A stretch of 64,000 bases of DNA, taken from Candidatus Heimdallarchaeum aukensis. Lineage in GTDB: Archaea > Asgardarchaeota > Heimdallarchaeia > Heimdallarchaeales > Heimdallarchaeaceae. Where the stretch lies: positions 512,001-576,000 of the forward strand of contig CP084166.1 of assembly GCA_021513695.1 (NCBI GenBank), read 5' to 3'. This document shows, in pieces, positions 1,839 to 58,981 of the stretch; the stretch's first letter is position 1, and every line of letters starts with the position of its first letter. The notes under the pieces are model-generated. The model saw only the letters and a program-made list of their open reading frames with translations. It did no database searches and was not told where the DNA came from. The translations under genes were made by a program, and so were the position numbers.

Positions 1839-1932
1839 AGGAGTAAAACGCTACAACAAAAATTGATGGTAAAGTTAGACATTTGTGTATTAAATGAAAT
1901 AAATATACTTATACAATATGAGCTATTGCGAT

Positions 1933-2301
1933 TTATAATTCTTCTAATTCATATTCTGTAACTTCTTTTTTAAATTCTTCTTCAGTTAATAGTACAACAT
2001 CAAAATCTAAATCTTCTATTTTCATATTAATAACATTGTATGAACTACCAATTTCAATATGAGCTTTAGGAAACCCATACTTGAGATTGGATGCAATCAT
2101 AGGATAAATATTCTTTTTAGGAGGATCTCCTGCAACAGTAAATATGATGTCTAAATCACTCTTATTACGATGATTCCCTCTTCTTCTTGAACCAGCTCTT
2201 GCTATTCCACTAACTCTAAGTCCAGTATTGTTTTTTATGAAATTTCCAATACTTCTCCACAACTTTGCATATCTCTGTTCAAATTCAGGTCTTTCAGCCA
2301 C
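1933..2301 (-). CDS. minimal nucleotidyltransferase (Pol-beta superfamily, MNT-like)
   Basis: Signature G-S-x(n)-D-x-D: ARAGSRRRGNHRNKSDLDIIFTV. The 122-aa size is typical of minimal NTases. No HEPN-like partner lies next to it. Confidence 0.6.
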   Translation of the reverse strand: MAERPEFEQRYAKLWRSIGNFIKNNTGLRVSGIARAGSRRRGNHRNKSDLDIIFTVAGDPPKKNIYPMIASNLKYGFPKAHIEIGSSYNVINMKIEDLDFDVVLLTEEEFKKEVTEYELEEL

Positions 2302-2404
2302 AAGCTAAATTATTACTTAAAATATAAAAACATTTTTTCTTTTTTTCTTTAATTATTCTTAAAAATTTTTATTTTGAATTTCAAATTATTTTTTCAATTT
2401 GAAT

Positions 2405-3415
2405 AAGAGCGTTCAAAAATTAATTTTTATTAATGTGAGGGTTTATGTTGGAATTATGACTTACTTTCAGATCAAGATCCCCACAAAGTAAGAGAATTCA
2501 TAATCATTATGAACCTTTCCTTAAGAAACTGGTGGATGAGAAAACGAGAGAAAGCAAAAAAGGAAGAAAAAGAATAGCAAAAAGATGGGTGATTCTGGCT
2601 TTAGCGATTATTGCTAGAATAGACGGGATAGCTTGGAGGAAGTTAGAAGAAAAGTTGTCTCTATGTGATTTTTTGATAGAAGAGGGGTGGATGAGGAAGA
2701 TTCCTTCTAAATCTACTTTTCATGCTGTATGGAGAGCAACAGAAAGTAAAATCTTAGAGCAGTGGATAATAGATTTAGGGGGAGAAATAGTGAGAAAAAA
2801 AGGGTTGAAAGCTATGGCGGTGGACAGTTCAGGGTTTAAAATCCATCAAGCTTCTGTTTGGCGTTTTCTCAAATGGTCAAGAGGGACACTAAAGAAAACC
2901 TCTAAACTAAACTTCTCTTGAAGATACACCTTATAGCTGGTTTACCCTCCAGAGCTATAGTCTCTCTAGCACATTCTGCTAGTAACACTCACGATAGTAA
3001 AGTCTTCGGTTTGTTATGGCAAAAACTTCCTTCTGCACTCTTAAGACCGCTCTTGAGATTCTATGGTGACTGCGCCCACTGGACAGAAAATATCGTCGGT
3101 CTTCTTAGCCAACATTCCTTTTTTCCTGTTATTCCCCCAAAAAGTAATGCTCGTTATCCCTCTCCTCCTCCCCTTGGACCAATAGTTCAAGCTCATCGTC
3201 TCTACCCTGTTCTCTATCGTTTATCATAATCACCACCCCGAGTATCGTAGTAGTATTGAACACGTCTTTGGTCTCCTCAAACTCTCTCTTCCCCCAATCC
3301 TTGATCGCTTACCCTCTACCATTCTCTCTACTCTTTATAGTTCTCTCCTCTGTTACAACTACCTTTTATTCCTTCGGACCGTTTAGCAGGTGAAAAAGAA
3401 TTTTTGGACATGCTT
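2405..3415 (+). mobile_element. IS5-family-like insertion sequence, copy 1 (decayed)
   Basis: About 1 kb, closely similar by eye to the inverted copy at 50695-51700. Right terminal repeat is AATTTTTGGACATGCTT (3399-3415); the left end is degenerate (AAGAGCGTTCAAAAATT). Flanked by the 7-bp direct repeat TTTGAAT (2398-2404 and 3416-3422). Visibly more G+C-rich than its surroundings. Confidence 0.8.
2456..3386 (+). pseudogene. DDE transposase (IS5/DDE_Tnp_1-like), multiply broken
   Basis: The ATG at 2456 hits TAA after 11 codons (MTYFQIKIPTK*). ORFs 2532-2921 and 2918-3229 then lie in different frames, and the C-terminal HHPEYRSSIEHVFGLLK... lies in a third frame. The motifs AVDSSGF, KIHL..GLPSRA, YGDCAHW and IEHVFGLLK fit the D-D-E layout of IS5-type enzymes. 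Confidence 0.75.
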
Positions 3416-3861
3416 TTTGAATTAAATTTATCAATTCCTTATTGTCAAGAAAATCATTCTTAATGGAAAAAAATCTAAACAATTTTCATAGTTTGTTTCT
3501 CCAGCAATTATATCCTCTTTTAAAGGTTAGTAAAATAAAAAAAGCAATATCGCTTTCTGCACTTTAAAAAGTTTTATTCCACTCCTTATTTTCGAAGAAT
3601 TCAGTCATAATATTCTTAATTTATTCAGTTCTTGTTAAATAAAAAAAACAATAAAAATAGAATCACATCATTTCTTGAAGTTACAACTAACTTTTGGCGC
3701 ATAATAATTATAGATTAAAATACAAAAAGTTTGCTCAGAATTTGGGACTTTGAATGTTAAAATCATTATTCACTCTAGTTCGATTAGACTTTTGTAAAAA
3801 AAACATACAATAATAAAAAAAAATTTATTTTGATTTGAGAAAAATCCAATTCTCGTCTCAA

Positions 3862-5361
3862 TTATATATTTCTCGTTTGCTCAAGTTTACTTCTTTGTTT
3901 CCACAAATTAAGTATTCTTCGCTGTTTTTCTGATATTGTTTCAGTTTTTACTCTTTTTATTGCTCCTATCTTTTCATAAAAAGCATATAGTGCTGCCACT
4001 TTTATTTCCTCATTTTCTTCTATTTTTTCTTTGATTGAAGCTTTTTCTATAAAGTCTGTTGAAACTATTCTTTCTTGGAATTCTTTTGTTTCAAGTATAG
4101 TTTTATGGAAATCTATGTTGGTTGTAATCCCACTAATTGTTAATTCTTTAAAAGCTAACCTTGCTCTTTCTATTGCGTCGTTTCTTGTTTTTCCCCATAC
4201 AATTAGTTTTCCTAAAAGAGAGTCATATTCATTTGACACATTGTAAGATGAAAAAACAAAAGTATCAAATCTTACATGATATATACTTGGAGCTATTAAT
4301 TGTTCAATTTTTCCTGATTTAGGTAAGAAGGTTTTTGGGTCTTCAGCATTTATTCTAAATTCAATTGCACTTCCATTTATTTTTATTTCATCTTGAACAT
4401 AACTTAATTTTAATCCTCCTGCTACTCTGATTTGTTCAACTACAAGATCTATTCCAGTAACCATTTCTGTTACAGGGTGTTCTACTTGAATCCTTGGATT
4501 AACTTCATTGAAATAAATTTGTCCATCTTTGTAAAGAAATTCAGCTGTTCCAGCATTAACATATCCTAGCTCTTTAGCCATCTTACAGACTTTTTCTCCA
4601 AGTTCATTTCTTTCTTGTTCTGTCAAAAATGAAGGCGCTTCTTCTATTAGTTTCTGATGAGAACGCTGAATGCTACATTCTCTATCTCCTAAGTGGATTA
4701 CATTACCATAACTATCTCCAATGAACTGTATCTCTATGTGTCTTGGAGATTCGATGTATTTCTCTATGAAAACAGACTTATTACCAAAAAAGTTCTCTGC
4801 TACAGATTGTGCTCCTAAAAGAGAGATTTCTAAAGTTTCGGGAGAGTTGACTATTTCCATTCCTTTTCCTCCCCCTCCAAAAGCAGCTTTAATAATTATA
4901 GGATAACCTATTTTTTCTGCTACTGTCTTTGCTTCTTCCAGTGTTTCTACATATCCTTTTGAACCTGGAACAACAGGTATTCCTACTTTACTTGCTATGC
5001 TTCTTGCTTTAACTTTGTCTCCTAGAAGGTCTATTACCTCTGGAGAAGGACCAATGAAAACAATCTTGCTTTTTATTACTTTTCTTGCAAATTCTGAGTT
5101 TTCAGAGAGAAAACCATAACCTGGATGTATAGCATCACATTTAGCTTTTTTGGCTATTTTTATTATTTTATCAATGTTAAGATAAGTTTCATTAACTGAA
5201 CCAGAACCAATACAATAAGCTTCATCTGCTAGTTTAACGTGTAATGACTGAGAATCGACTACGGTAAAGATAGCTACAGTTTTGATATTCATAAGTTTAC
5301 AAGCACGAATGATTCTAACAGCTATCTCTCCTCTATTTGCAATAAGTATCTTCTTAAGCAT
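3862..5361 (-). CDS. biotin carboxylase (ATP-grasp) subunit of a biotin-dependent carboxylase (AccC/PycA type)
   Basis: MLKKILIANRGEIAVRIIRA, HPGYGFLSEN, glycine loop GGGGKGM, EVNPRIQVEHPVTE. Start moved to the ATG at 5361 because the 27 upstream residues of the ORF track look like AT-rich read-through. No BCCP or carboxyltransferase gene is adjacent. Confidence 0.9.
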   Translation of the reverse strand: MLKKILIANRGEIAVRIIRACKLMNIKTVAIFTVVDSQSLHVKLADEAYCIGSGSVNETYLNIDKIIKIAKKAKCDAIHPGYGFLSENSEFARKVIKSKIVFIGPSPEVIDLLGDKVKARSIASKVGIPVVPGSKGYVETLEEAKTVAEKIGYPIIIKAAFGGGGKGMEIVNSPETLEISLLGAQSVAENFFGNKSVFIEKYIESPRHIEIQFIGDSYGNVIHLGDRECSIQRSHQKLIEEAPSFLTEQERNELGEKVCKMAKELGYVNAGTAEFLYKDGQIYFNEVNPRIQVEHPVTEMVTGIDLVVEQIRVAGGLKLSYVQDEIKINGSAIEFRINAEDPKTFLPKSGKIEQLIAPSIYHVRFDTFVFSSYNVSNEYDSLLGKLIVWGKTRNDAIERARLAFKELTISGITTNIDFHKTILETKEFQERIVSTDFIEKASIKEKIEENEEIKVAALYAFYEKIGAIKRVKTETISEKQRRILNLWKQRSKLEQTRNI

Positions 5362-5625
5362 GAAAAGTGAATATGCTACACCTTTATTTAAATGAGTTGT
5401 TGTTTTATGAGTAAAAAATATTATAAAAAAATACAATTTCAATTTATTTGAAATTAATTCAACAGAGAAATTCTTACTTGTTACATAGGTTTCTAAATGA
5501 TCTTTAATCTTAATTATAATAACAATAGAAACAATCTAAAGAGAACACTTCCTAAATTAGTAAAGTCAGTAGACAAAAATATTAATAATTAGCAACTAAT
5601 TATCCAATTTAGTTATATTTCCCAA

Positions 5626-6590
5626 GTGTTTGACTTGAATAAAGAGGTTCTATACAATTTTTTTCATTCTCGAATCTTCAGTATCATTCAAGCTTTCTTT
5701 ATTACAATTCTGTGGTCATCTTCTTGGATACTAATAAAAGAAGGACTAGAAGATATTCCACCTATATTCTTTGCGGGAATTAGATATACTATTTCTTCAT
5801 TTATTTTAATCATTTTAGTATTTATTTTCTATAATAAAGAACAAACAAATGTAAAGATTTCCAAAAAATTATGAGGAAAACTAATTATTTATGGATTTAC
5901 TTTTTATACCATCACTCAAGGAGCTCAATTTATTGGAATATATTTTCTTCCAACTATTACAGTAAGCATGGTTTATAGTTTCACTCCTATAATTGTAGTT
6001 CTATTTTCTTACTTGATTTTAAAAGAGAAATCAAGTTTAATTCAGTTACTAATAGTTTTAGCTTCTATTGTTGGAGTAGTTCTCTACTTTAATCCCTTTT
6101 ACCAACAAGAAAGAACAGACTTTTTTACAATTGGTATTATTATAGTTATTTTTGGTGTAATAGCAAACGCCTTAGCAACAATAATTGGTCGAGACATTAA
6201 TAGTTCAAAGCAAATTCCTCCTCTTCTTGTGACATCAATTAGTAAGACTATAGGTTCGATTATTTTACTTATAGTAGCATTAATAATTGAGAATTTGCCC
6301 AAAATATCACTTAAATCTCTATTAATTATTCTTTGGTTAAGTATTGTAAACACAGCATTTGCTTTTACATTATGGAACAAAGTGATGCAAAAGCTAAAAG
6401 CAGTTGAGTTAATAATGATTAACAACTCTATGCTTGCTCAATTGCAATTTTAGCAGTAATATTTCTAGGAGAACGTCATCTAATTATAGAATGGATTGGA
6501 TTAACAATAGTTGGTTTATGCTCTATTTTTATCCAAATATTTAGAAATAATGGGACAAAAGAAGTAATTACAAATAAAAATGAAAATTAA
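5626..6590 (+). pseudogene. EamA/DMT-family transporter, disrupted
   Basis: ORFs 5626-5874 and 5968-6453 share one frame, separated by a single in-frame TGA (5872-5874) within ISKKL*GKLIIYGFTFY. A frameshift near 6423-6432 moves the conserved tail (LYACSIAILAVIFLGERHLIIEWIGLTIVGL...) into another frame that ends at 6590. Confidence 0.7.
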
Positions 6591-6611
6591 AAAAGAAAAA
6601 CTAGAGCTTTT

Positions 6612-7997
6612 TTAATTCTGTGAAGAGATGTTTATACCCTTTGTTTTAATATAAGGAGTTTCTAGATAGCCATTAACTTTTTTGGTTGTTTTACTTAAAG
6701 ACACAATATTTTTCAGTACATCGAAAACATTACCTGCGATAGTCACATTAGTTAAGGGGGTTGTGATCTCACCATTTTTTATAAGTTGAGCACCTTTAGC
6801 TACTCCAGAGAATATACCATTCTCAGATCTTTGAGAGCCAGCAAAGTATTCAAAGACTATACCTTCTTTTATATCTTCTATCATTTCATCGTATTTTGTG
6901 TCTCCTGGTTTAATTACTGGTACATTTGGAAAGATATTATTTGGAGGATTCATAAAACTGCTATTTATAAATCCACGATAAGAATTTCCTGTTGATTGTG
7001 TGTTTGCTTTGTTTGCTGTCTTTATATCAAACAAATGTGTCATCAATACTCCATCTTTAATTATTTCTAGTTCTTTAACTGGTGTTCCTTCGTCATCAAA
7101 AGGTCTAGCGGTAGAGGATTTTCCATCTAATGAATTATCTATAAACGAGAAGCCATCTATCGCTACTTTTTCTCCTATACTATCTTTCCAAAGTGATTGA
7201 TTATGTTGTGTTCTTTCTGCTGATATAGCCATTGCAATAACAATGAATATTGGGCTAAGGACAGCATCAGGTTTGAAAACAACTATGTCTGAATCTATAC
7301 CTTTTAATTTTTCAACATTGACATTTCTAATGGCTCTTTCTACTAATTCTTTACCAAATTGGTAGAAATCAACTTCTTTTGGATCTTTCACACTAAATGA
7401 ATCCGATACAAAAGAACCTACTTTCTCTCCTTCTCTTGCAATTGCAAGAAATGATCCATCAAGGCTATTTCTGATATAGTTTCCTTCTACACCAAGAGAG
7501 TTTGCTATTCCCACATATTCTTCAGAAAGGATGATTCGACTAAGGTCTGTTTTAACGCTTATTGGTGCTTCTTCAAAGGGTAATAGTATCTGTTTAGCAC
7601 TGTCTATTAGTTCTTCAACCGTAAAAGTAGATAATTGTTTTGAAAAAAGTCCTTCGATTGTTGAATAGGAACTGGGAGGAGCAAGAGCTATTCCTTCTTT
7701 TTTAGGTTTGACTTTTAACATCACAATTGCTTGTTCAACTGTTTGCTCTATTGCTTTTTTATCTGCTTTATTAGTATAACTAAATCCTTCTACAGAATCT
7801 AGTAAAACTCTTATTCCAAAACCTAATTCTTGCACTTCTTTCTCATTAGCTATTTCTTTTCCAGAACAAGTAACTTCTAGTTTCTTGTTATCAGAGAAAA
7901 ATACTTCAGCGTCTTTAACTCCTTTCTTTTCAGCATACTCAATAGCATATTGAGCAAGATAATAAGCTTCATCTCTATTGATATTTGATTCACTCAT
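6612..7997 (-). CDS. pmbA: PmbA/TldE-family protein (TldD partner)
   Basis: 461 aa, homologous in length and layout to the adjacent TldD-like gene but without an HExxxH motif. Its start abuts the upstream gene's stop (7997/7998). Confidence 0.8.
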   Translation of the reverse strand: MSESNINRDEAYYLAQYAIEYAEKKGVKDAEVFFSDNKKLEVTCSGKEIANEKEVQELGFGIRVLLDSVEGFSYTNKADKKAIEQTVEQAIVMLKVKPKKEGIALAPPSSYSTIEGLFSKQLSTFTVEELIDSAKQILLPFEEAPISVKTDLSRIILSEEYVGIANSLGVEGNYIRNSLDGSFLAIAREGEKVGSFVSDSFSVKDPKEVDFYQFGKELVERAIRNVNVEKLKGIDSDIVVFKPDAVLSPIFIVIAMAISAERTQHNQSLWKDSIGEKVAIDGFSFIDNSLDGKSSTARPFDDEGTPVKELEIIKDGVLMTHLFDIKTANKANTQSTGNSYRGFINSSFMNPPNNIFPNVPVIKPGDTKYDEMIEDIKEGIVFEYFAGSQRSENGIFSGVAKGAQLIKNGEITTPLTNVTIAGNVFDVLKNIVSLSKTTKKVNGYLETPYIKTKGINISSQN

Positions 7998-9398
7998 TTA
8001 ATTTCCTCCTGCAAGCATTGCTTTAACTGCTATATGTGGACCTCCAGCATCCACTTTGGCCGGTTGAATCTTTCCACAAGAACCTGAACCTAAAGAAATA
8101 ACAAAATCTTTGCCTACGCCTATAATATTGGATAAAACTTCAAAAGCGTTTCCAGTTAAAACAGGTCCCTGGTAAATTTTCTCTGTTATCTCCCCTTTAG
8201 TAATTCTAAAAGCTTCTAATGCTCCAAACATGAATTCTCCACTTGAATCTGCCTGTCCATTTTGTAGAGATTTAAGGTAGTAACCGTCACCTATAGCTTC
8301 TAATAATTCTTCAAAACTCATATCTCCAGATTCGATGTAGGTGTTCCTCATTCTAACAATTGGTTCATCAGCAAATGTGTAAGCTCTTGCGTTTCCTGTA
8401 GGTTCAACACCTAACTTTGTTGCTAGTTCTCTATTAGTCATATACCCTGTCATAACTCCATTGGTAATGATTTTCACTTCTTTTCCTTTTACTCCTTCAT
8501 CATCGAAAGGTAACCATCCTACACCCATCCAGTTAGTGCTTTCTTTAAAAGGAGAATCTACTATAGTTATTCGTTCATCACAAACTTTTTTACCCAACTT
8601 ACCTTGAGTAAAAGAGCCAGCAAGAACTAAGTCAGCTTCAGCAGTGTGTCCTATAGCTTCATGTGCAAGAACACCTACCATCTGATGATCTAATAACAAA
8701 TTATGTGTCCCTGCAGGGGGTAATGTTGCATCTGTTAATTGTGTAGATTTTTCACATGACGATTTAACTAGTTCATCTAGTGGATGTAAATCAAAAAACT
8801 CTGCTCCACAAGTATGAGACCATGATTTATATCCTCCAGCTATTTTCCCTTCTTTTGAAGCAACAGCATAACTAATAACCGTTGGTTTCATGTCTTCCCA
8901 TTCTACTCTTGTTCCTTCGTTAGTGAAAATAATTCTTTTATCAATGACCTCATTATAGCTAATTTGAAGACTTTTGACCGCTGAATAATCATTTTTTAAT
9001 TTTGAAGCTTCTTGTATCATCTTTATTTTTTCTTCAAGTGAAATGTCTAACAAGCTAATTTTCCTCGGTGATACAGCTTTTTCATCGATTATTTCTACTT
9101 CAGCTAATTGTATTTTTTCACTTTTTGAACTTGCAGAGTTTTTAGCTAAAGAAACCGCGTTAGAAACAATTTTTTCTGCATTTTCTTTGCTCAACTTATT
9201 CGTACTAGCAAAAGCCCAACTTCCATCAACTAGAACCCTAATTCCTATTCCATTTCTAGATCCTATGTTAGTGTTAATTTCTCCATTCTTATATACTAAA
9301 TCTGCAGAATATTTGTCTTGAAACCGAGCTTCTACAAATTCTGCTCCTTTTTTTTCTGCATACTCTAGAATATAGTTTAATAGATCTCTTATTTCCAA
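7998..9398 (-). CDS. tldD: TldD-family metalloprotease
   Basis: 466 aa with HEAIGHTAEAD (HExxxH) and a Gly-rich C-terminal region. Paired with the PmbA-like gene, as in known TldD/TldE systems. Confidence 0.85.
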   Translation of the reverse strand: MEIRDLLNYILEYAEKKGAEFVEARFQDKYSADLVYKNGEINTNIGSRNGIGIRVLVDGSWAFASTNKLSKENAEKIVSNAVSLAKNSASSKSEKIQLAEVEIIDEKAVSPRKISLLDISLEEKIKMIQEASKLKNDYSAVKSLQISYNEVIDKRIIFTNEGTRVEWEDMKPTVISYAVASKEGKIAGGYKSWSHTCGAEFFDLHPLDELVKSSCEKSTQLTDATLPPAGTHNLLLDHQMVGVLAHEAIGHTAEADLVLAGSFTQGKLGKKVCDERITIVDSPFKESTNWMGVGWLPFDDEGVKGKEVKIITNGVMTGYMTNRELATKLGVEPTGNARAYTFADEPIVRMRNTYIESGDMSFEELLEAIGDGYYLKSLQNGQADSSGEFMFGALEAFRITKGEITEKIYQGPVLTGNAFEVLSNIIGVGKDFVISLGSGSCGKIQPAKVDAGGPHIAVKAMLAGGN

Positions 9399-40617: not shown

Positions 40618-43600
40618 TCATTCTTTTTTACCTTTTCCTGTTTTTTCCCATTCACTAAATTTATCTATTAGTTCGTCAATAGCATGTGTTATCTCTTCAG
40701 TGATTTTTTCAACAATAATTAATTTGTCATCTTCAATTCGAATAGACAAAAAAGAGCCAAGCTCAACCAACCATAATTCAAGTTCATTAAGATCTTCAAA
40801 ACCTAATTTTTCTTGTAAAGTGAATAAAGGTATTTCAGAAGTAGTGGATAAAACCTTGAAGAATTCTTTAGCTCTTTCTATTTCAACATCTCGAGAATCA
40901 AAATAGTTTATTTTTTCTTCTATTTTTTCTTTTAATTCATTGTATTGTTCTATTCCATTGCTGGATAGCTCTCCTACTGTCTCTGTGTTCATAACCCTAC
41001 TATAATTTTCTTTCCAGTTAGCTAATTTTTCGTCAAACTCTTTAAAATATAACTCACTTTCTGTTATTTTTCCTTTTAGAGAATACACAAACAGATTATC
41101 TATTTCTTTTCTTAGCTCTTCTCCTTTTTTATCTAACAATATTAAAGGATAAAGATAAATAAGATCTCGAACTTCTTGTCTCTTATTTTCTATTTCTTGT
41201 AATTCCTCTAACAAGTCTTTTCTTTCTTCATTGGTTATTTGTTTAGAAAGAATTTCAAGTTTAGATTGAAAAAAATCACGAAAACCATCTGTTATCTCTA
41301 ATAACTTTTTTACTTTCTCGTAGTTAATATTAATGTTTAAGTCTTGTTGATTAATTATTTCTTTCTCTATTTCTAAAAATTCATCAAAGGTTTGTTTTTT
41401 GTGTATCTTAATTTGATTAATGTACGCATTTAATTCTTCTTTTGAAATTTGCTCATCAATATTTTTGATTTCATAGATCTTGGAAGAAAGCAAAGCATTT
41501 CGTATATCTATTTTTTCTATCTCTTTGGCATAGATTAAGTACTCATTACTTAATTCTTTGAATTCAAAAAAGACTTTAGCTATCCTTTTATTATAGTTAT
41601 CAAGATCAATTTTTTTATAATCGTTCTTTTGCACATAGCTATTGATCTGTTGCAAATCAGAGAGCAGTTGTTGCTTCTTTTCTAATATTTTATTCAACAA
41701 TAAGATATATTCATCTGTAATTTTTCTTTCTAATTCAGTCTTAATTTGTGATAACTTTTCTATAAAATCATTAATCTCCCTTTTCACTTTTTCAAATTCA
41801 ATAATATTTTTCTTTCCAATTATAACCTTAAATAAATTAAACTTTGAGCGATAAGAACCAATAATATTATCTAATTGTTTAGCACTATTAACCCATTCTT
41901 TAAAATTATCAGGTGAATATGATTGAAGAAGATATTCATCTATTTTTTCCTTAAATTTATTAAATTCCAAAAATTGTTTATTATATTCGTTCTTCAGTTG
42001 GATGATTTTTTCTCTCTGTTTTTTCTTAATTAATAAAATAGTTGTTGTTACGCTTCCTATTACCAAAAAACTCAATAGACAGGAAAGCACAATTTTAATT
42101 TTTTTTGCTCGAGGATTGCTTAATTTATTTAATGGATCACTTCCATAAATGATTATTTCATCATAATCATTAAATTTGTCATCATCTGTGTCATTTTTTG
42201 TTGGATCTGTGTGGTAAGCATATATTTCTTCATAATCAGATAAACCATCTCCATCAGTGTCAGAATCTATGGGATCAGTTAAGAAAACTATAACTTCTTG
42301 ATAATCAGTTAAACCGTCGCTATCTGAGTCTTTCTTATAAGGAAAAGAATGAAATATTTTAACTTCTTCATAATCACTTAATTTATCATCATCAAAATCC
42401 CCATCTCTTATACATCCTCCAAAAATAACTTCATCATAATCATTAAGACCATCACCATCAGTGTCATTGAAATTAGGATTAGCCATCCACTGATATTCTT
42501 CTAAATTTGATAAGCCATCTCCATCAGAATCGGCCTTGGAGTCATCTAAATTATAGACAATTTCCCAAGCATCTTCCATTCCATCAGAATCAGAATCATT
42601 CTCGACAGATGCAACTCGCCTAGGAAAGATATCTCCAATTTTATTTCCATAAATAGAATAAAAATTGGTAGTACCATCCCAATCTTCCCATAAATTGCCA
42701 ACTAGTAAAGTAGGAGAATACCAGTAAGTGTTAGTGCCATAATCTTCATTATTATCTTGAATCTTCAAAAAAGAATTATTGAAGACTATGTTATAATCTC
42801 CTCTTTCACCAATCCTTACTCCCCCTAAACCTGTTCCACAAAAAAGGTTATTATAAATCAAACTGTTACTTACTTCGAAACCATAACTAATAGCAAAATT
42901 AGTTGAATTATAGATATTGTTATTACTAATAACAACGTTATTACATCTTTCTAAATATAATCCATCTGATGTTGCTCCATTTATCAAATTATCAGAGATT
43001 ACAATTTCACTATTACCACTTGACCATAGGCATGAAGCCCAATCATTAGTTGTTTTTTCTAAATTATTGTAAAAGATTTTTATTTTTTTATTATCTCTAA
43101 CTCCAATGCTTCCTGCTCCATTAGTTATACATGTGTTTTTTATAATTGTAACATTTGAAGATTCAGAAACTAAAATACCAAAACCAGAGTTATTGGCAGA
43201 ATAATTATTTTTTATCAAGCTATCTCCAGATTGATGTACCAACACGCCATATTGATTATAAAGAAGAGTACAATTCTCAACTATTACACCACCTGCTCTA
43301 GTTTCAGAAGAAATCCCAACTTCATAACCTTGAATAAAACAATTCCTAATTATTACGAAAGAACTAACATAACGAATAACAATACCACAAGAATTTTCTA
43401 AATACTCAGTATCACCAGTTGAAACTTCATAGTTCTCAATTATATAAGGGTCTGCTTCAGTTCCTGAACCAGGAAACCCAAACTTTACAAAGTCTTCTTC
43501 ACTATTGATTTCTATCGGTGAATGAACAATATAACGTGTTTCTTTAGCATTGTTTCTTTCGGCAATTGCTTTTTGACAAGAACTACCATGGTTTATTTGT

Positions 43601-43875
43601 CTGTAGCTTGAAGTTAAATTATGCTTATCAATTGAGCGATAATTATCATATTCTTTTCCATTCTCTGTTTTATTGTTATTAAATTTAGAAGCCTTTTCAT
43701 CTACATAATTATCTATTAGGTGAAAAGTTGGAGTAAGAAAAAGAAAAATAACTAAAGAAACAATAATTCTTTTATAGTTTGGAAATATATTGTTTAATAT
43801 TTTCATTTCTAGAACAAGTATATACATTACAATAAAAAAATAAAAGTTTTTCTTCACTATTTCTTTTCTTTTCAT
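40618..43875 (-). CDS. giant type-I membrane protein B (same architecture as A, longer coiled coil)
   Basis: N-terminal anchor, beta-helix units (NNSGFGILVSESSNVTIIKNTCITN...), TSP3-like DSDGDGLSNLEE / DTDGDGLNDYDE / DSDTDGDGLSDYEE, TM IVLSCLLSFLVIGSVTTTILLI, and about 480 aa coiled coil ending AIDELIDKFSEWEKTGKGKKE. Confidence 0.8.
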   Translation of the reverse strand: MKRKEIVKKNFYFFIVMYILVLEMKILNNIFPNYKRIIVSLVIFLFLTPTFHLIDNYVDEKASKFNNNKTENGKEYDNYRSIDKHNLTSSYRQINHGSSCQKAIAERNNAKETRYIVHSPIEINSEEDFVKFGFPGSGTEADPYIIENYEVSTGDTEYLENSCGIVIRYVSSFVIIRNCFIQGYEVGISSETRAGGVIVENCTLLYNQYGVLVHQSGDSLIKNNYSANNSGFGILVSESSNVTIIKNTCITNGAGSIGVRDNKKIKIFYNNLEKTTNDWASCLWSSGNSEIVISDNLINGATSDGLYLERCNNVVISNNNIYNSTNFAISYGFEVSNSLIYNNLFCGTGLGGVRIGERGDYNIVFNNSFLKIQDNNEDYGTNTYWYSPTLLVGNLWEDWDGTTNFYSIYGNKIGDIFPRRVASVENDSDSDGMEDAWEIVYNLDDSKADSDGDGLSNLEEYQWMANPNFNDTDGDGLNDYDEVIFGGCIRDGDFDDDKLSDYEEVKIFHSFPYKKDSDSDGLTDYQEVIVFLTDPIDSDTDGDGLSDYEEIYAYHTDPTKNDTDDDKFNDYDEIIIYGSDPLNKLSNPRAKKIKIVLSCLLSFLVIGSVTTTILLIKKKQREKIIQLKNEYNKQFLEFNKFKEKIDEYLLQSYSPDNFKEWVNSAKQLDNIIGSYRSKFNLFKVIIGKKNIIEFEKVKREINDFIEKLSQIKTELERKITDEYILLLNKILEKKQQLLSDLQQINSYVQKNDYKKIDLDNYNKRIAKVFFEFKELSNEYLIYAKEIEKIDIRNALLSSKIYEIKNIDEQISKEELNAYINQIKIHKKQTFDEFLEIEKEIINQQDLNININYEKVKKLLEITDGFRDFFQSKLEILSKQITNEERKDLLEELQEIENKRQEVRDLIYLYPLILLDKKGEELRKEIDNLFVYSLKGKITESELYFKEFDEKLANWKENYSRVMNTETVGELSSNGIEQYNELKEKIEEKINYFDSRDVEIERAKEFFKVLSTTSEIPLFTLQEKLGFEDLNELELWLVELGSFLSIRIEDDKLIIVEKITEEITHAIDELIDKFSEWEKTGKGKKE

Positions 43876-47054: not shown

Positions 47055-48065
47055 TGTTCACTCAATAGACCTGGGTTACACTTTTGGGTACTAGAGAAAC
47101 ATAGGGGTGATTCATAAATTTTTCTCCAGGAGTAAGGAGGTTAAGAGACTGGTGAGGACGGCTAAAATTGTAGTATGAGCGGTAGAAGGAGAGGTCGGAG
47201 TTACAGTAGGTTAGTCCTAGTCTTTTCATCTCACGGATAATGGTTCCATGTAGTCTTTCTACTTTTCCACATGTTTCGGGGTGAAAAACTCTAGATCTTA
47301 TGTGCTTTATTCCCTCTGTTTGACACCAACGGGAGAAGGTACTTGTTCCCCCTCTAACGGAGTAGAATAGTGCTCCATTGTCTGTGAGAATAGACTCGGG
47401 GTATCCATATTTTTCTACTGCTTCTTCTAACAGACTTATTATCTGCTCTTTTTTCGGTGCGAAAGGGTGGAGTTTAGCTCCCAGGCAGAATCGTGAGTGG
47501 TCGTCTATTAGAGTTATGAGATAAAGGTGTTGTCCTTGTTCTTCTACCCAGAAAGGTCCTTTCACATCTATCTGCCAGAGTTCGTTAGGGGATGAGCGCT
47601 CAAAACTCTTGTATTGAGTAATGTTTCTCTTTTTTCTATTACTCCACAGAGGAAGACCTAACTCCCCTATTACTTTAACTACTGTGTTTCGCGATAGTGC
47701 TCTTCCTTCTTTCTTCAACAGATAAACTATCTTCTCCACGTTCATTCCTTGCTTTACTCTTAACTCCCTTATCCTCTCTCTTAACTCCTCATTCACTTTC
47801 CTGTGTATAGTTTTAGGTCTAGATGATCTATCCTTCCACCATTCTCCTTCAGGGTTCTCCTTAAACCTTTTCAACCACTTATATACAAACTTCCTACTCA
47901 CCATATACCTGTGAGCTACCTCTTTTATCTTCTCTCCTTCCAAAGCTTTTTTAACCACAATCTTTCTTAGTCTCTCTAGGTTACGTTTGGGTTTGTTCAT
48001 AATTCGTCACTTACCCTCGTAACCCACTTTCTATTTATTTGTTACCAACGTGGGTAGAGTAAACA
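47055..48065 (-). mobile_element. IS481/IS3-like (rve integrase-type) insertion sequence
   Basis: 1011 bp between the 16-bp direct repeats. Imperfect terminal repeats TGTTCACTC.../TGTTTACTC... One ORF. Visibly more G+C-rich than host DNA. Confidence 0.8.
47062..48000 (-). CDS. DDE transposase, rve (integrase core) type
   Basis: 312 aa with an N-terminal HTH (KEVAHRYMVSRKFVYKWLKRF). LWQIDVKGPF (D), ESILTDNGALF (D), CGKVERLHGTI (E), YNFSRPHQSL. Confidence 0.85.
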   Translation of the reverse strand: MNKPKRNLERLRKIVVKKALEGEKIKEVAHRYMVSRKFVYKWLKRFKENPEGEWWKDRSSRPKTIHRKVNEELRERIRELRVKQGMNVEKIVYLLKKEGRALSRNTVVKVIGELGLPLWSNRKKRNITQYKSFERSSPNELWQIDVKGPFWVEEQGQHLYLITLIDDHSRFCLGAKLHPFAPKKEQIISLLEEAVEKYGYPESILTDNGALFYSVRGGTSTFSRWCQTEGIKHIRSRVFHPETCGKVERLHGTIIREMKRLGLTYCNSDLSFYRSYYNFSRPHQSLNLLTPGEKFMNHPYVSLVPKSVTQVY

Positions 48066-50694: not shown

Positions 50695-51700
50695 AAGCAT
50701 GTCCAAAAATTCTTTTTCACCAACTATACAGTCCGAAGGAGTAAAAGGTAGTTGTAACAGAGGAGAGAACTATAAAGAGTAGAAAGAATGGTGGAGGGTA
50801 AGTGATCAAGGATTGGGGGAAGAGAGAGTTTGAGGAGACCAAAGACGTGTTCAATACTACTACGATACTCGGGGTGATGATTATGGCGATAGAGACCAGG
50901 GTAGAGACGATGAGCTTGAACTATTGATCCGAGAGGAGGAGAGGGATAACGAGCATTACTTTTTGGGGGAATAACAGGGAAAAAGGAATGTTGTCTAAGA
51001 AGACCGACGATATTTTCTGTCCAGTTGGCACAGTCTCCATAAAATCTCAAGAGCGGTCTCAAGAGTGCAGAAGGAAGTTTCTGCCATAGTAAACCGAAGA
51101 CTTTACTATCGTGAGTGTTACTAGCAGAATGAGCTAAAGAGATTATAGCTCTGGAGGGTAAACCAACTATAAGGTGTATCTTCCAGAAAAGTTTAGTTTG
51201 GAGGTTTTCTTTAGTCCTCCTCTTGCCCACTTGAGAAAACGCCAAACAGAAGCTTGACGGATTTTAAACCCTGAACTATCCACCGCCATAGCTTTCAACC
51301 CTTTTTTTTTCACTATTTCCCCACCTAAGTTTATTATCCACCGCTCTAAAATTTTACTTTCTGTCGCTCTCCACACTGCATGAAAAGTAGATTTGGAAGG
51401 AATCTTCTTCATCCACCCCTCTTCTATCAAAAAATCGCATAGAGACAACTTTTCCTCTAACTTCCTCCAAGCAATTCCTTCTATTCTAGCAATGATCGCT
51501 AAAGCCAGTATCACCCACCTTTCTGCTATTCTTTTTCTCCCTCTCTTACTTTCTCTCGGTTCCTCTTTCACCAGTTTCTTAAGGAAAGGTTCATTAATGA
51601 TTATGAATTCTCTTGCTTTGTGGAGGTCTATGATCTGAAAGAAACTCATACTTCCGACATAAACCCCCACATTAATAAAAATTAATTTTTGGACATGCTT
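50695..51700 (-). mobile_element. IS5-family-like insertion sequence, copy 2
   Basis: Perfect 17-bp terminal inverted repeats AAGCATGTCCAAAAATT (50695-50711) and AATTTTTGGACATGCTT (51684-51700). I found no flanking direct repeat. Confidence 0.85.
50724..51670 (-). CDS. IS5-type DDE transposase in two overlapping frames (orfA 51167-51670, orfB 50724-51245; a -1 shift is needed)
   Basis: orfA ends ...AVDSSGFKIRQASVWRFLKWARGGLKKTSKLNFSGRYTL*. orfB carries KIHLIVGLPSRA...NTHDS...YGDCANW...IEHVFGLLK to the natural end. It has fewer lesions than copy 1. Confidence 0.7.
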
Positions 51701-56092: not shown

Positions 56093-56557
56093 TTACGATA
56101 AATTACATAAGTACTCTATTAAGTCTTCGACATCTATACATCCGTACCCTACTCTATAGGAATAATAAGTAGAATAAGTGCCTAGGTTATTTATTGGTTC
56201 TCCAACTTTATCCCAGTGTAGTTAATAATAGGAACCGATATTTCTACCACTAGGATCATTCTCGCATGAATAATCAAGACATGCTCCGAAATCTTGATAC
56301 GTTAAAGGATGAGCAGGATCAAGATGATAGTGCATACGTGAAGCTAAATAAGCAGTTACAGCTACTTGAGGTGCAGACATGCTGGTTCCAGTAGCAATAA
56401 TATTTTCCACCACTCCATCATTATCCAAATCGCTCTTCATTTCCACTTTAAATGATGGAGATACACAATCAACAGTCGCTTCACTCAACCCATGATCTTG
56501 CCAAAACAGACTACCAACATACGCACCATCAGTGTTTGGAGAATAGGTGAAAGACAT
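56093..56557 (-). pseudogene. subtilisin-like (S8) serine protease, C-terminal remnant
   Basis: Contains the catalytic-Ser motif ATGTSMSAPQVAVTAY but no Asp/His regions upstream. An in-frame TAA at 56222-56224 is followed by a still-open, family-like tail (...YRVGYGCIDVEDLIEYL). Confidence 0.65.
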
Positions 56558-56562
56558 TCTAC

Positions 56563-57276
56563 ATGTTTCATGACTTTCAAGTTCAAGATGGTATTAACCT
56601 TTACAATTCCAATGGTTTTATTATAAAAAATAATACCATTTCCTATGGCGGGTATGGACTATTTGTATCTGAATCTTCACACGGGGTATATACTAATAAT
56701 ACTTGTATAGAAAATAGCAAATATGGTGTTTATATAAAATATGGATACAACATTTCTATCAATGAAAACAACTGCAGCGCTAATGATCAAGGTATAAATC
56801 TTTACAACTCTTCTACAATTTATATCCACAATAATAGCATAAGTAAAAACACTATTGGACTGACTTTTGATCTCTCTAATCATTCAATCATCACTTTTAA
56901 TTCATTTGAGAAGAATGAACAATATGCAATAATTATGGATTCTTCATCTTCTTCTAATCTCATCCATCATAATACGTTTATTGACAACAACTTGCAAGGA
57001 ACATCTCAAGCTTGTGATAATGGTCATAATAATACTTGGTATGACCAATCAACAAAAACTGGTAATTATTGGTCTGATAGAAAAGGGATAGGAAAATATT
57101 ACATAGATGGTAATAGTAAATCGTATGATAAATACCCCCTAAAAAATCTCCCTCAACAATGTGCTGAAAAAACTTCTATTGATTTTCTCATCATTCTGAT
57201 CTCTTTTCTCTCTACAGTTATTTTGTCTTATGTCATAAGAAACAAGTATGCATTCAGACAATTACGATTTAGATAG
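56563..57276 (+). CDS. beta-helix (PbH1) protein fragment with C-terminal TM, N-terminally truncated relative of the giant family
   Basis: PbH1 units (NNTISYGGYGLFVSESSHGVYTNNTCIEN...), NNLQGTSQACDNGHNNTWYDQSTKTGNYWSD..GKYYIDG as in A and C, and TM FLIILISFLSTVILSYVI. No signal peptide; the frame opens only at 56551. Confidence 0.5.
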   Translation: MFHDFQVQDGINLYNSNGFIIKNNTISYGGYGLFVSESSHGVYTNNTCIENSKYGVYIKYGYNISINENNCSANDQGINLYNSSTIYIHNNSISKNTIGLTFDLSNHSIITFNSFEKNEQYAIIMDSSSSSNLIHHNTFIDNNLQGTSQACDNGHNNTWYDQSTKTGNYWSDRKGIGKYYIDGNSKSYDKYPLKNLPQQCAEKTSIDFLIILISFLSTVILSYVIRNKYAFRQLRFR

Positions 57277-57279
57277 GTT

Positions 57280-57567
57280 TTATCCATCAGCTAATCCAAT
57301 CACTTCTCCTCTCTTAGTGAGATAAACATCAATTTCCGCTGCTTTTTTTGCTATAACATAGTCAATAGGTAGTATATCAAATCTAGATAAGTCCTGCTCA
57401 GCTTCCTCAAGTTTATTTGAAAATATAGCTGGCTTGTTACTATAAAGATAGTATATACCGCGTAAATATTCTTGGGCAGTAATCACAGATATGGCTTTAT
57501 AGCTTGGCCCCCTATCAATTTGCTTTGCTTTTTCTAAAGCATTTGGAACAGAGTTTGATACATATAT
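57280..57567 (-). pseudogene. PIN-domain (VapC-like) toxin gene, body fragment
   Basis: Hand translation: IYVSNSVPNALEKAKQIDRGPSYKAISVITAQEYLRG...FDILPIDYVIAKKAAEIDVYLTKRGEVIGLADG*. It lacks the N-terminal Asp-containing strand and the last roughly 25-30 aa. Confidence 0.65.
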
Positions 57568-57588
57568 ATGATTAAGAATATGATTAAG

Positions 57589-57840
57589 ATGGCGAAGAAT
57601 ATAGCAGTCTCTGATGAACTCTACAAATTGCTGAAACGGTTAAAACGTCCTGGTGAAAGTTTTACTGATGTGATTTTAAGATCAATAAAACATTCAACCT
57701 CTATAATGGATATTGCAGGTAAAAAAACAATACCCCTAGAAGAGTGGGAAAAACTCAAAAAATTATTTGAAGCGAAAGAAATAGAGGATTACAAGTGTAA
57801 AAGAGATTTGCTTGAGAAGGCTAATAATGTATCTTATTGA
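57589..57840 (+). CDS. vapB: VapB-type antitoxin (archaeal PF02697/DUF217-like pattern)
   Basis: MAKNIAVSDELYKLLKRLKRPGESFTDVILRSI matches the family pattern I recall (M.K.I.ISDE.Y..L..LK....SFS.VI..L). The start is placed at the third in-frame ATG. Confidence 0.65.
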   Translation: MAKNIAVSDELYKLLKRLKRPGESFTDVILRSIKHSTSIMDIAGKKTIPLEEWEKLKKLFEAKEIEDYKCKRDLLEKANNVSY

Positions 57841-57877
57841 CACAGATTTTATAATATATATTCATATGTATTATTAA
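57827..57877 (+). pseudogene. first codons of the PIN (VapC) gene, separated from its body
   Basis: The ATG overlaps the vapB end by 14 nt, as in TA operons. MYLIDTDFIIY is the PIN N-terminal strand with the catalytic Asp; it then reads IHMYY*. Confidence 0.6.
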
Positions 57878-57916
57878 AAATTTCCTAATCACATGCTCCA
57901 AAAAAAATAAAGAATG

Positions 57917-58981
57917 TTAATTATCATAGAATCGTAAATAGAAATAACTGCTAGGATCACCATCTTCAAGTACAGGAACAGAAGTGTAGGCATCAACATA
58001 ATCTTTTATTGTGTCAAAAACATTTTCTAAGTCAAGGTCAAAATTTATCCATTCACAACTGGAGCTATCCCAGTATTGTTTTATAAAATAACCTGTAAGA
58101 GCTCCATGGTAGTTGCTTCCATCCGGCATATAATTAAAGAATTTAGCTTGAGTAGTTTCATTGTATCTACACGCTGCAATCATAAGTACATTCTCTGAGG
58201 CTTGAATAGACATTATTTCATTCATTCCTCCAGAAAAGCATGAATCAATAAAAACAAGTAATTTTGATTCATAAGTCGTAGTTGAATCAGAACAAGCAAA
58301 TTTATCAAAAAGTATCTTTAAATTATAGTCATAAAGAAATTCATCTATTCCATAAGCTTGAACACTATGCTCTTCTTCATTATAACTATATCCATGCCCC
58401 GAGTAAATAAAGAATATTAAGTCATTTGGATCAGAATTTTCAACAACATTAGCTGTAACATCGTAAATATTTTGTAGTGTTGCTTGATGATAATCAAAGT
58501 TAAAGATACCACCTCCAGGACCTGATGTGTCAGGTAAATCAAAAAGACTTTCTCGATTTACAGATTCTTCGTGGCCAAGTAGGTGAACATTCATAGAAAA
58601 AGAAACAATATCATAAGTTTCTGGTTGTTGATCAAATAATTCAAAAAGAGCTGAAGCCCACATACACCATAAAATTGCATCTTCCCACGCACCAGCACAA
58701 TATTGTCCAGTTTGATCTTGACCAATACCGATAATAATAAACTCTGCCTTAATTTTATTGTCAGTGCCACTAGGATAGTCTATTACTGGAATAGTTGGTC
58801 CATTAACTCCTCCCCCATCACCGGTACCAGGATCAAGTTCAAAACCTTTTGTCAATAAGACTTCTTGAAAGAGTGTATTATTTATACTAGAACATAGTAA
58901 TGTCGATAAAATAAATAACGTAATAAAAATATTTTTATTAATTTTATTCACAGACCTATTAAAAAAATAACAACATCCCAT
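57917..58981 (-). CDS. extracytoplasmic caspase-like (clan CD) cysteine peptidase
   Basis: N-terminal anchor IFITLFILSTLLCSS. His/Cys dyad contexts LIFFIYSGHGYS and LLVFIDSCFSGGM. Confidence 0.65.
   Translation of the reverse strand: MGCCYFFNRSVNKINKNIFITLFILSTLLCSSINNTLFQEVLLTKGFELDPGTGDGGGVNGPTIPVIDYPSGTDNKIKAEFIIIGIGQDQTGQYCAGAWEDAILWCMWASALFELFDQQPETYDIVSFSMNVHLLGHEESVNRESLFDLPDTSGPGGGIFNFDYHQATLQNIYDVTANVVENSDPNDLIFFIYSGHGYSYNEEEHSVQAYGIDEFLYDYNLKILFDKFACSDSTTTYESKLLVFIDSCFSGGMNEIMSIQASENVLMIAACRYNETTQAKFFNYMPDGSNYHGALTGYFIKQYWDSSSCEWINFDLDLENVFDTIKDYVDAYTSVPVLEDGDPSSYFYLRFYDN

Follow-up and report, generated by a model that had tools for sequence, protein, structure and literature searches.

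Type II VapBC toxin–antitoxin (TA) modules are the closest described counterpart of the locus presented here. Shared with them are a PF02697 VapB antitoxin gene lying upstream, a 14-nt overlap with the toxin gene, and a PF01850 (PIN domain) VapC toxin gene encoding the conserved residues Asp5, Glu42 and Asp103. The locus differs in having a toxin gene that is split between the two strands and has lost its C-terminal quarter, and an antitoxin gene that is probably off its promoter. The nearest solved relatives are FitB (2h1c) together with the tRNA(fMet)-specific VapC endonucleases of Shigella, Salmonella and Haemophilus (3tnd, 6ifc and 5ed0).

Decaying TA loci and orphan antitoxins are closely comparable. 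Orphan antitoxins are a discussed phenomenon, and their cross-interaction has been reviewed (PMC7354431). The present locus likewise has an intact antitoxin ORF beside a destroyed toxin gene, in a lineage with further solitary or fragmentary vapB copies (that of protein P0014 and contig L083, and a fragment on contig L079). It differs in that natural alleles reveal the order in which its lesions arose, and in that the antitoxin gene is probably promoterless too.

Invertons, such as those flipped by the Hin and Gin serine invertases or the fimS element with FimB and FimE, offer a second comparison. As in these elements, a short segment that adjoins a fixed promoter and is bounded by inverted repeats exists in both orientations. 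Unlike them, the locus has no recombinase gene nearby, its AT palindromes are unequal and only 6–10 nt long, no sample has yielded a mixture of orientations among its assembled contigs, and the gene concerned is a pseudogene in both states.

A third group comprises rearrangements at palindromes. Template-switch events at bacterial quasipalindromes belong to a related class of rearrangement. In human t(11;22), mediated by palindromic AT-rich repeats (PATRRs), the breaks fall at palindrome centres (PMC4940405). The breakpoints here are also inside AT-rich palindromes, although the human palindromes measure hundreds of base pairs.

We describe a vapBC locus of Candidatus Heimdallarchaeum aukensis PM71 that is very probably the relic of a type II module damaged in two successive steps, an older 3′ deletion and then a one-off inversion. 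It is a new, well-documented instance of two known phenomena, the decay of TA loci and the inversion of DNA at short inverted repeats.

MATERIALS AND METHODS

The window is the whole stretch of PM71 DNA that was analysed (64 kb, 31% G+C), and all coordinates are window positions unless a contig is named. The PM71 genome is circularised, with a backbone assembled by SPAdes from Illumina PE150 reads and with Nanopore reads from MDA-amplified DNA used for scaffolding (Wu et al. 2022, PMC8813620). Comparisons were made by blastn and tblastn, domains were assigned by Pfam profiles, and the frequency of short motifs was judged against dinucleotide shuffles of the window.

JGI metagenomes were scanned with a 30-mer common to both possible arrangements of the locus, which returned one contig, L005. 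The un-inverted contigs are L079 (ERZ23491060), L080 (ERZ27227320), L081, which is the same as L005 (JGI 3300014911), and L082 (SRR6823441). Contig L004 is a more distant relative, L083 carries a paralogous vapB, and L001 and L002 are Logan contigs. The inversion junction pattern had no match in GTDB species-representative genomes.

RESULTS

An intact vapB gene and a divided vapC gene

The antitoxin gene lies on the plus strand at 57589–57840, ending with the TGA at 57838–57840. Its 83-aa product matches PF02697 (VAPB_antitox, E 6.6e-12), confirming the VapB-type antitoxin called here by the original prediction, and also NF010249 (E 1.4e-10). It has the length of the L004 VapB and is encoded directly upstream of the toxin start, as expected in a VapBC module. 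Alternative starts at 57580 and 57568 would give proteins of 86 and 90 aa. These in-frame ATGs are added by a perfect 12-nt tandem duplication just 5′ of vapB, two copies of ATATGATTAAGA at 57566–57589 (plus strand), which came to light in a repeat search and in the comparison of alleles. The duplication is present in both the inverted and the un-inverted allele of this locus and absent from the paralogue on L083 (paralogue B).

An orphaned 5′ stub of vapC follows on the same strand (57827–57877), its ATG at 57827 overlapping the end of vapB by 14 nt. It reads MYLIDTDFIIYIHMYY*, with the stop codon ending at 57877: native codons 1–9 (MYLIDTDFI) occupy 57827–57853, the residues IY come from the junction, and IHMYY* follows. 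Nothing else of the toxin gene stands behind vapB. The body of the pseudogene, codons 10–104 plus the TAA at 57282–57280, is on the opposite strand (57567–57280, minus), where IYVSNSVPNALEKAKQIDRGPSYKAISVITAQEYLRG...GLADG is read from 57567 to 57283. It thus lacks codons 1–9 through the inversion and about 32–35 C-terminal codons through the older deletion.

Both pieces were recognised by tblastn with full-length P0002, the closest homologue of the restored VapC, which is encoded on L004. Residues 1–10 aligned at 57827–57856 (plus) and residues 12–103 at 57561–57286 (minus), in agreement with the predicted division of a PIN gene into a short start at the end of vapB, running into junk and a stop, and a remainder read from 57567 down to 57280. 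Residues 104–136 had no match in the window. A remnant of the vapC 3′ end beneath the neighbouring NosD-like gene was considered and rejected, as tblastn found no trace of one in the window.

When the segment was turned back in silico, the restored protein aligned to the PF01850 PIN profile across the junction, from profile position 1 (positions 1–85 of 120, 32.8 bits), as the original prediction had anticipated. Deprived of the stub, the protein scored 23.0 bits, under the curated cutoff of 23.6 bits. The restored VapC is 49–63% identical, from Met1 onward and across the junction, to VapC proteins of 136–139 aa, one of which is annotated in a Baldrarchaeia MAG. Asp5, Glu42 and Asp103 are all present, and everything beyond Asp103 is missing relative to these proteins. 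Even in one piece the gene would therefore fall short of a complete PIN domain of about 130–140 aa, and the predicted 3′ shortening (GLADG*) is real.

Part of the body is annotated in the published genome. The 68-aa ORF at 57280–57486 (minus) is identical to NCBI UJG41291.1 (K9W45_02235), a ‘hypothetical protein’; it is a fragment of the vapC pseudogene, and the annotation is corrected here.

A reciprocal inversion with junctions in two AT palindromes

The 8-nt palindrome ATATATAT, (AT)4, occurs just twice in the 64-kb window, at 57562–57569 and 57854–57861, once at each junction of the inversion. Dinucleotide shuffles gave a mean of 4.4 copies against the 2 observed, so the count is ordinary; the coincidence of both copies with both breakpoints is not chance. 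Between them, the unambiguous interior of the inverted segment (57570–57853, plus strand) holds vapB and vapC codons 1–9. By blastn this interior matches L079–L082 in forward orientation at 99.3–99.7% identity, and both flanks match in reverse. With the AT-tract portions included, the length of the flipped piece comes to 290–298 bp; cuts at the centre of both palindromes would make it 292 bp.

The crossover register could be read from the toxin frame. Re-inverting 57568–57853, a 6-nt register, yields an in-frame PIN ORF of 104 codons; the symmetric 8-nt register causes a frameshift. The former agrees with the un-inverted alleles, which have (AT)3 in vapC codons 10–11, homologous to the left junction, and (AT)5 upstream of vapB, at the right junction. 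In PM71 both tracts are (AT)4. The originally predicted inversion of roughly 300 bp, its placement in the two palindromes and its 6-nt register have accordingly all stood.

Un-inverted alleles in sister strains

Four assemblies from four samples (L079–L082) carry the un-inverted vapB–vapC pair at about 99% identity to the window, each encoding the same 104-aa VapC (P0010). On L005 the order is ACATATGA-(AT)5-GATTAAG...vapB...GATTTTATA-(AT)3-GTATCAAAC. Here vapB and vapC form a bicistronic operon with the 14-nt overlap, as they do on L004, and this pair is broken in the window. The arrangement that the original prediction had reconstructed, with an uninterrupted PIN ORF behind vapB, is therefore found in nature.

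The 9.1-kb contig L079 spans the whole neighbourhood, in which the gene for a protein of 919 aa is followed by those for a caspase-like peptidase, VapB, VapC (104 aa) and NosD (491 aa). Its positions 1980–6381 match the right flank of the window (62258–57854) in reverse at 98.8% identity, positions 6376–6673 match the inverted segment (57562–57859) in forward orientation at 99.7%, and positions 6668–7660 match the left flank (57567–56572) in reverse at 96.6%. Both flanks are thus collinear with L079, on the right out to 62258, and the difference between the alleles is a single reciprocal inversion.

Polarity follows from the more distant L004, on which vapB (83 aa) and vapC (136 aa) share a 14-nt overlap and converge on a NosD/beta-helix gene. 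At the DNA level the L004 vapB matches the plus strand of the window, and its vapC body and NosD gene match the minus strand. The PIN ORF is continuous only in the un-inverted form, and the layout of that form is the vapB–vapC–NosD layout of L004, with the same NosD neighbour as in the window.

Divergence at the locus is low. When the window sequence is reconstructed with (AT)5 and (AT)3, its alignment to L081 and L082 is gap-free, and mismatches are absent from the upstream junction, with two in vapB (2/252 positions against L081) and two in vapC (2/315 against L081). The vapB differences from the sister alleles amount to one or two nonsynonymous changes. By comparison, the NosD gene differs from L081 at 35/708 positions and the caspase-side flank from L079 at 10/1158. 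The module thus appears to sit at the background divergence of about 1% with no discernible signal of selection, one or two substitutions per gene being too few to test, and the inversion is recent. Elsewhere in the window, an aldehyde:ferredoxin oxidoreductase is 95% identical to its counterpart in Ca. H. endolithica PR6.

An older deletion at the toxin 3′ end

The convergent neighbour of vapC, which served as a synteny anchor, is represented in the window by a fragment of a NosD/beta-helix gene (56563–57276, plus strand; PF05048, E 8.9e-24) that covers the C-terminal half of a protein of 491 aa. The gene is full-length on L079, at 6959–8434. The premature vapC stop (57282–57280) sits 3 nt from the convergent NosD-like stop (57274–57276), and the scar of the deletion lies at 57277–57285. 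Nucleotide similarity to the full-length L004 vapC stops at 57285; at the deletion site L004 continues with 100 nt more of vapC, followed by a spacer of 44 nt.

The same GLADG* end, directly against the NosD stop, is found on L005 and L079–L082. Since all un-inverted alleles already end in this way, the deletion of about 145 bp is older than the inversion. And since the toxin gene is truncated in these alleles, the inversion was very probably not its inactivating event. The 104-codon VapC is missing the helix and strand at the C-terminal end of the PIN fold, and from its sequence was presumably non-toxic before the inversion took place.

Promoter and expression of vapB

The flipped segment excludes the probable native BRE/TATA of the operon, GGAAATTTTTAATAATA at 57885–57869 (minus strand), which is conserved on L079 and in paralogue B. 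Its GAAATTTTTAATAATA is conserved upstream of vapB on both L079 and L083, and in L083 lies 24 nt from the ATG. The L083 region upstream of vapB is 85% identical to that of the un-inverted allele over 55 nt. Other genes in the window are preceded by similar elements, resembling (G)AAA-TTTTTAAA or TATTTATA and ending 16–24 nt before the ATG, a spacing expected for leaderless archaeal mRNAs. On these grounds GGAAATTTTTAATAATA is probably the native vapBC promoter. Upstream of it, a run of eight T residues after the caspase-like gene (57900–57907, minus strand) is a likely archaeal terminator that would set this gene apart from the vapBC promoter.

The (AT)n tract was also considered as the TATA box of the operon, in which case the palindrome would keep vapB expressed after the flip. 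This idea was downgraded, because GAAATTTTTAATAATA lies further upstream at canonical spacing and L083 reads ATGTATATGT at the (AT)5 position. As L083 keeps a GGAAATTTTTAATAATA-type element but not (AT)5, the tract most likely lay between the TATA box and the vapB start.

With the BRE/TATA left outside the inverted segment, expression of vapB is doubtful. The intact ORF is probably uncoupled from its promoter, which would now read antisense into the stub and vapB. Transcription is predicted to start near 57845 on the minus strand and would probably produce antisense RNA of vapB and then of the start-less vapC body. The original prediction of an intact antitoxin beside an inactivated toxin is thus right about the vapB ORF; it has to be amended in that the toxin gene was truncated before the inversion and in that vapB is probably promoterless.

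DISCUSSION

A decayed module and its likely mechanism

The reading that we consider very probable has two steps. The first, common to all sampled strains of the lineage, was the deletion of about 145 bp that removed the last 32–35 vapC codons and the spacer to NosD, leaving a 104-codon ORF that ends ...GLADG*. The second, confined to PM71 among the sampled strains, was one reciprocal inversion, about 292 bp long, whose ends lay in a pair of short AT palindromes, the (AT)5 between the probable TATA box and the vapB start and the (AT)3 in vapC codons 10–11, leaving (AT)4 at each. It parted vapC codons 1–9, including the catalytic Asp5, from the rest of the gene, and turned vapB away from its probable BRE/TATA, so that the promoter probably drives antisense RNA over vapB into a promoterless vapC body.

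The mechanism was most likely illegitimate. Candidates are the rejoining, through microhomology, of two breaks that may have fallen at the palindrome centres, and a replication template switch across an imperfect inverted repeat of 14 nt (86%), the best such repeat flanking the segment. When L079 was flipped in silico, both window junctions were reproduced for every pair of cut offsets summing to 8. Five cut-site pairs are therefore equivalent, centre/centre among them, and the mechanism cannot be read from the product. Breaks at both centres with blunt rejoining, as in the PATRR translocation, are compatible with the change from (AT)5 and (AT)3 to (AT)4 and (AT)4, as one of these five solutions. 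Cruciform extrusion is implausible, because the ancestral tracts (6 and 10 nt) are far shorter than palindromes known to extrude. Site-specific recombination is unlikely. Recombination with an inverted paralogue was rejected as the cause, since the segment is 99.3–99.7% identical to the un-inverted allele (allele A) and only 92% to paralogue B, and since collinearity of the flanks extends to 62258.

Alternative explanations

The alternative that survives best, though we regard it as unlikely, gives the inversion a function: it would have inactivated the toxin and been tolerated or selected for keeping an expressed orphan antitoxin, either to neutralise a paralogous VapC or as an anti-addiction device. 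The vapB ORF is intact, related vapB paralogues in these strains make cross-talk conceivable, and the (AT)4 at 57562–57569 now lies 19 nt before the ATG at 57589, a typical TATA-to-ATG distance in this genome, where it could act as a substitute TATA box that keeps vapB expressed. Yet truncation of the toxin gene is seen even in the un-inverted alleles; the conserved BRE/TATA stands outside the segment and now faces vapB antisense; the vapB substitutions are at background level with no sign of selection; and tblastn found no intact VapC paralogue in the window.

Far less probable is a programmed, reversible switch, an archaeal inverton that would couple and uncouple vapB and vapC and the fixed promoter at 57869–57885. 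Both orientations do occur among strains about 99% identical, the imperfect 14-nt inverted repeat flanks the segment, both junctions are still perfect palindromes, so that the event is formally reversible, and invertons classically have a fixed promoter immediately beyond the segment that flips. However, no serine or tyrosine recombinase was found in a Pfam scan of the ORFs across 46–62 kb, and the only mobile-element genes within about 10 kb, 6–10 kb from the locus, are of IS type and encode an rve integrase (47062–48000) and a split DDE_Tnp_1 transposase (50724–51670). Invertons typically have matched repeat sites of more than 10 nt; here the repeats are shorter, and their lengths differ between the two states, (AT)3/(AT)5 in the ancestral and (AT)4/(AT)4 in the derived. 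The gene to be switched is already a truncated pseudogene when ON.

Nor do the assemblies suggest that the segment is moving. Each holds one orientation: the PM71-type contigs (L001, L002 and the window) are inverted, and L079–L082 are un-inverted, with no graph break where they cross the vapC junction. No sample yielded both orientations among its assembled contigs, a level of observation above that of minor read fractions. Two contig ends were examined as possible traces of a mixture and rejected. The Logan contigs stop at 57666, a break inside the segment rather than at a junction, which a paralogue explains. L080–L082 start at (AT)5, but they cross the vapC junction, L080 begins with a Nextera adapter, and coverage is low. 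A variant of the same idea, in which AT palindromes beside the TATA box would let a 292-bp cassette flip relative to the fixed promoter and so toggle sense and antisense transcription of the antitoxin, with no recombinase at all or with one supplied in trans, is just as improbable; if true, a reversible AT-palindrome switch of this kind would give Asgard archaea their first described inverton-like element.

The paralogue that explains the ends at 57666 is a second vapB in the PM71 genome, encoding P0014 (69 aa, annotated ‘antitoxin VapB family’), which is 95% identical to the window VapB. Its metagenomic counterpart is L083, whose long exact run shared with the window ends near 57694. Because of this shared run the Logan k=31 contigs, from runs SRR15988954 (100% identity to the window over 6.3 kb) and SRR15988958 (99.9% over 4.6 kb), break off before the left junction. 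The right junction (57854–57861) is exact in both L001 and L002, and the left junction has been seen only in the window. Exact-protein look-ups with VapB at its three possible lengths (83, 86 and 90 aa), with the PIN remnant (68 aa) and with the NosD fragment (237 aa) found no record, and so no independent assembly of the left junction. L001 and L002 probably derive from the same enrichment as the PM71 genome, and so count as independent assemblies rather than as independent biological samples.

Multiple displacement amplification creates inverted chimeras. That the inversion is such a chimera or an assembly artefact, as the metagenomic origin of the PM71 genome and its Nanopore library from MDA-amplified DNA might suggest, is hardly credible, since the backbone is Illumina PE150/SPAdes with Nanopore used for scaffolding only (PMC8813620), the 8-nt repeats are far below any k-mer used and leave no ambiguity to an assembler, the right junction recurs exactly in Logan contigs of two runs, and the event is exactly reciprocal, 5+3 AT units becoming 4+4 with no base lost, from which a consensus of chimeric reads would differ.

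Meaning of the locus

With two-step decay of a vapBC module as the preferred reading, the direct significance of the locus is small: it is one more dead TA locus in a genome rich in repeats and rearrangements. As its vapB is probably promoterless, TA surveys should take care not to score it as a working orphan antitoxin. Its value is as a clean natural example, with both alleles at hand, junctions exact to the base and the order of the lesions known. It shows that in a Heimdallarchaeon a sub-kilobase inversion can arise via very short AT palindromes around an archaeal promoter.

Structural and sequence variation of the NosD-like gene

The NosD-like locus convergent with the vapBC relic is structurally polymorphic between strains, since the window ORF (56563-57276, plus strand) corresponds to no more than the C-terminal half of a secreted protein of 491 aa, whereas the copy in L079, a 9.1-kb contig of a sister strain, is intact, and a 280-aa version is found in L003, a public ENA contig, and in the sister-strain contigs L080 and L081. 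In place of L079 7661-8458 the window has 260 bp of unrelated sequence (56312-56571), contained in a minus-strand ORF (56222-56557) that gave no match in Pfam and includes a GTSMSAP motif resembling that of subtilases. The gene also differs in sequence: window 56570-57276 is ~5% divergent from L080-L082, against ~1% for the adjoining DNA, which suggests either diversifying selection or recombination between NosD paralogues. Further NosD/beta-helix genes lie at window 40618-43875 and just past the window end.

Two public ENA contigs open with the Nextera (Tn5 mosaic-end) adapter AGATGTGTATAAGAGACAG (L003 1-67 and L080 1-23), and this adapter is the source of the spurious 'MCIRDR' N-terminus of protein P0001, the representative of its 90% cluster.

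Additional vapB sequences

A second, solitary vapB paralogue is carried by metagenomic contigs L083 (1-900) and L084 (JGI 3300033149 / 3300033150); its representative in PM71, encoded outside the window, is the 69-aa protein P0014. Its identity to the window vapB is 92% at the DNA level and 95% at the protein level, and its C-terminus is shorter and different (...FEMKEIELQA). At the L083/L084 locus the 3′ half of a NosD gene lies upstream in tandem orientation, and no PIN gene was found downstream. The putative promoter GAAATTTTTAATAATA is retained there and the 12-nt duplication is absent. Positions 1-75 of L001, a PM71-type Logan contig, suggest a NosD paralogue ~0.8 kb past the right end of the window, so the paralogous vapB locus may be only ~7-8 kb from the vapBC relic.

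L079 holds a third vapB-type fragment, MVKTIAISDELYKLLKG* (1891-1984, minus strand), similar to the protein P0012 and joined to an ABC-transporter ATPase fragment. Homology between L079 and the window stops, at window 62258, exactly at this fragment, which looks like another rearrangement breakpoint with a vapB relic as its marker.

Gene content of the neighbourhood

At a distance of 6-10 kb from the vapBC relic there are two IS-type genes. One (47062-48000) encodes an rve-family integrase that includes HTH domains; the other (50724-51670) is a DDE_Tnp_1 transposase gene whose division into two overlapping ORFs is probably a frameshift or pseudogene. The region is flanked by a paralogous pair of caspase-like (Peptidase_C14/C13) genes, at window 57917-58981 (minus strand) and L001 824-1882, and also by surface proteins of the FG-GAP/beta-propeller and TSP3-repeat kinds. 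These surroundings resemble a variable island of surface or secreted proteins.
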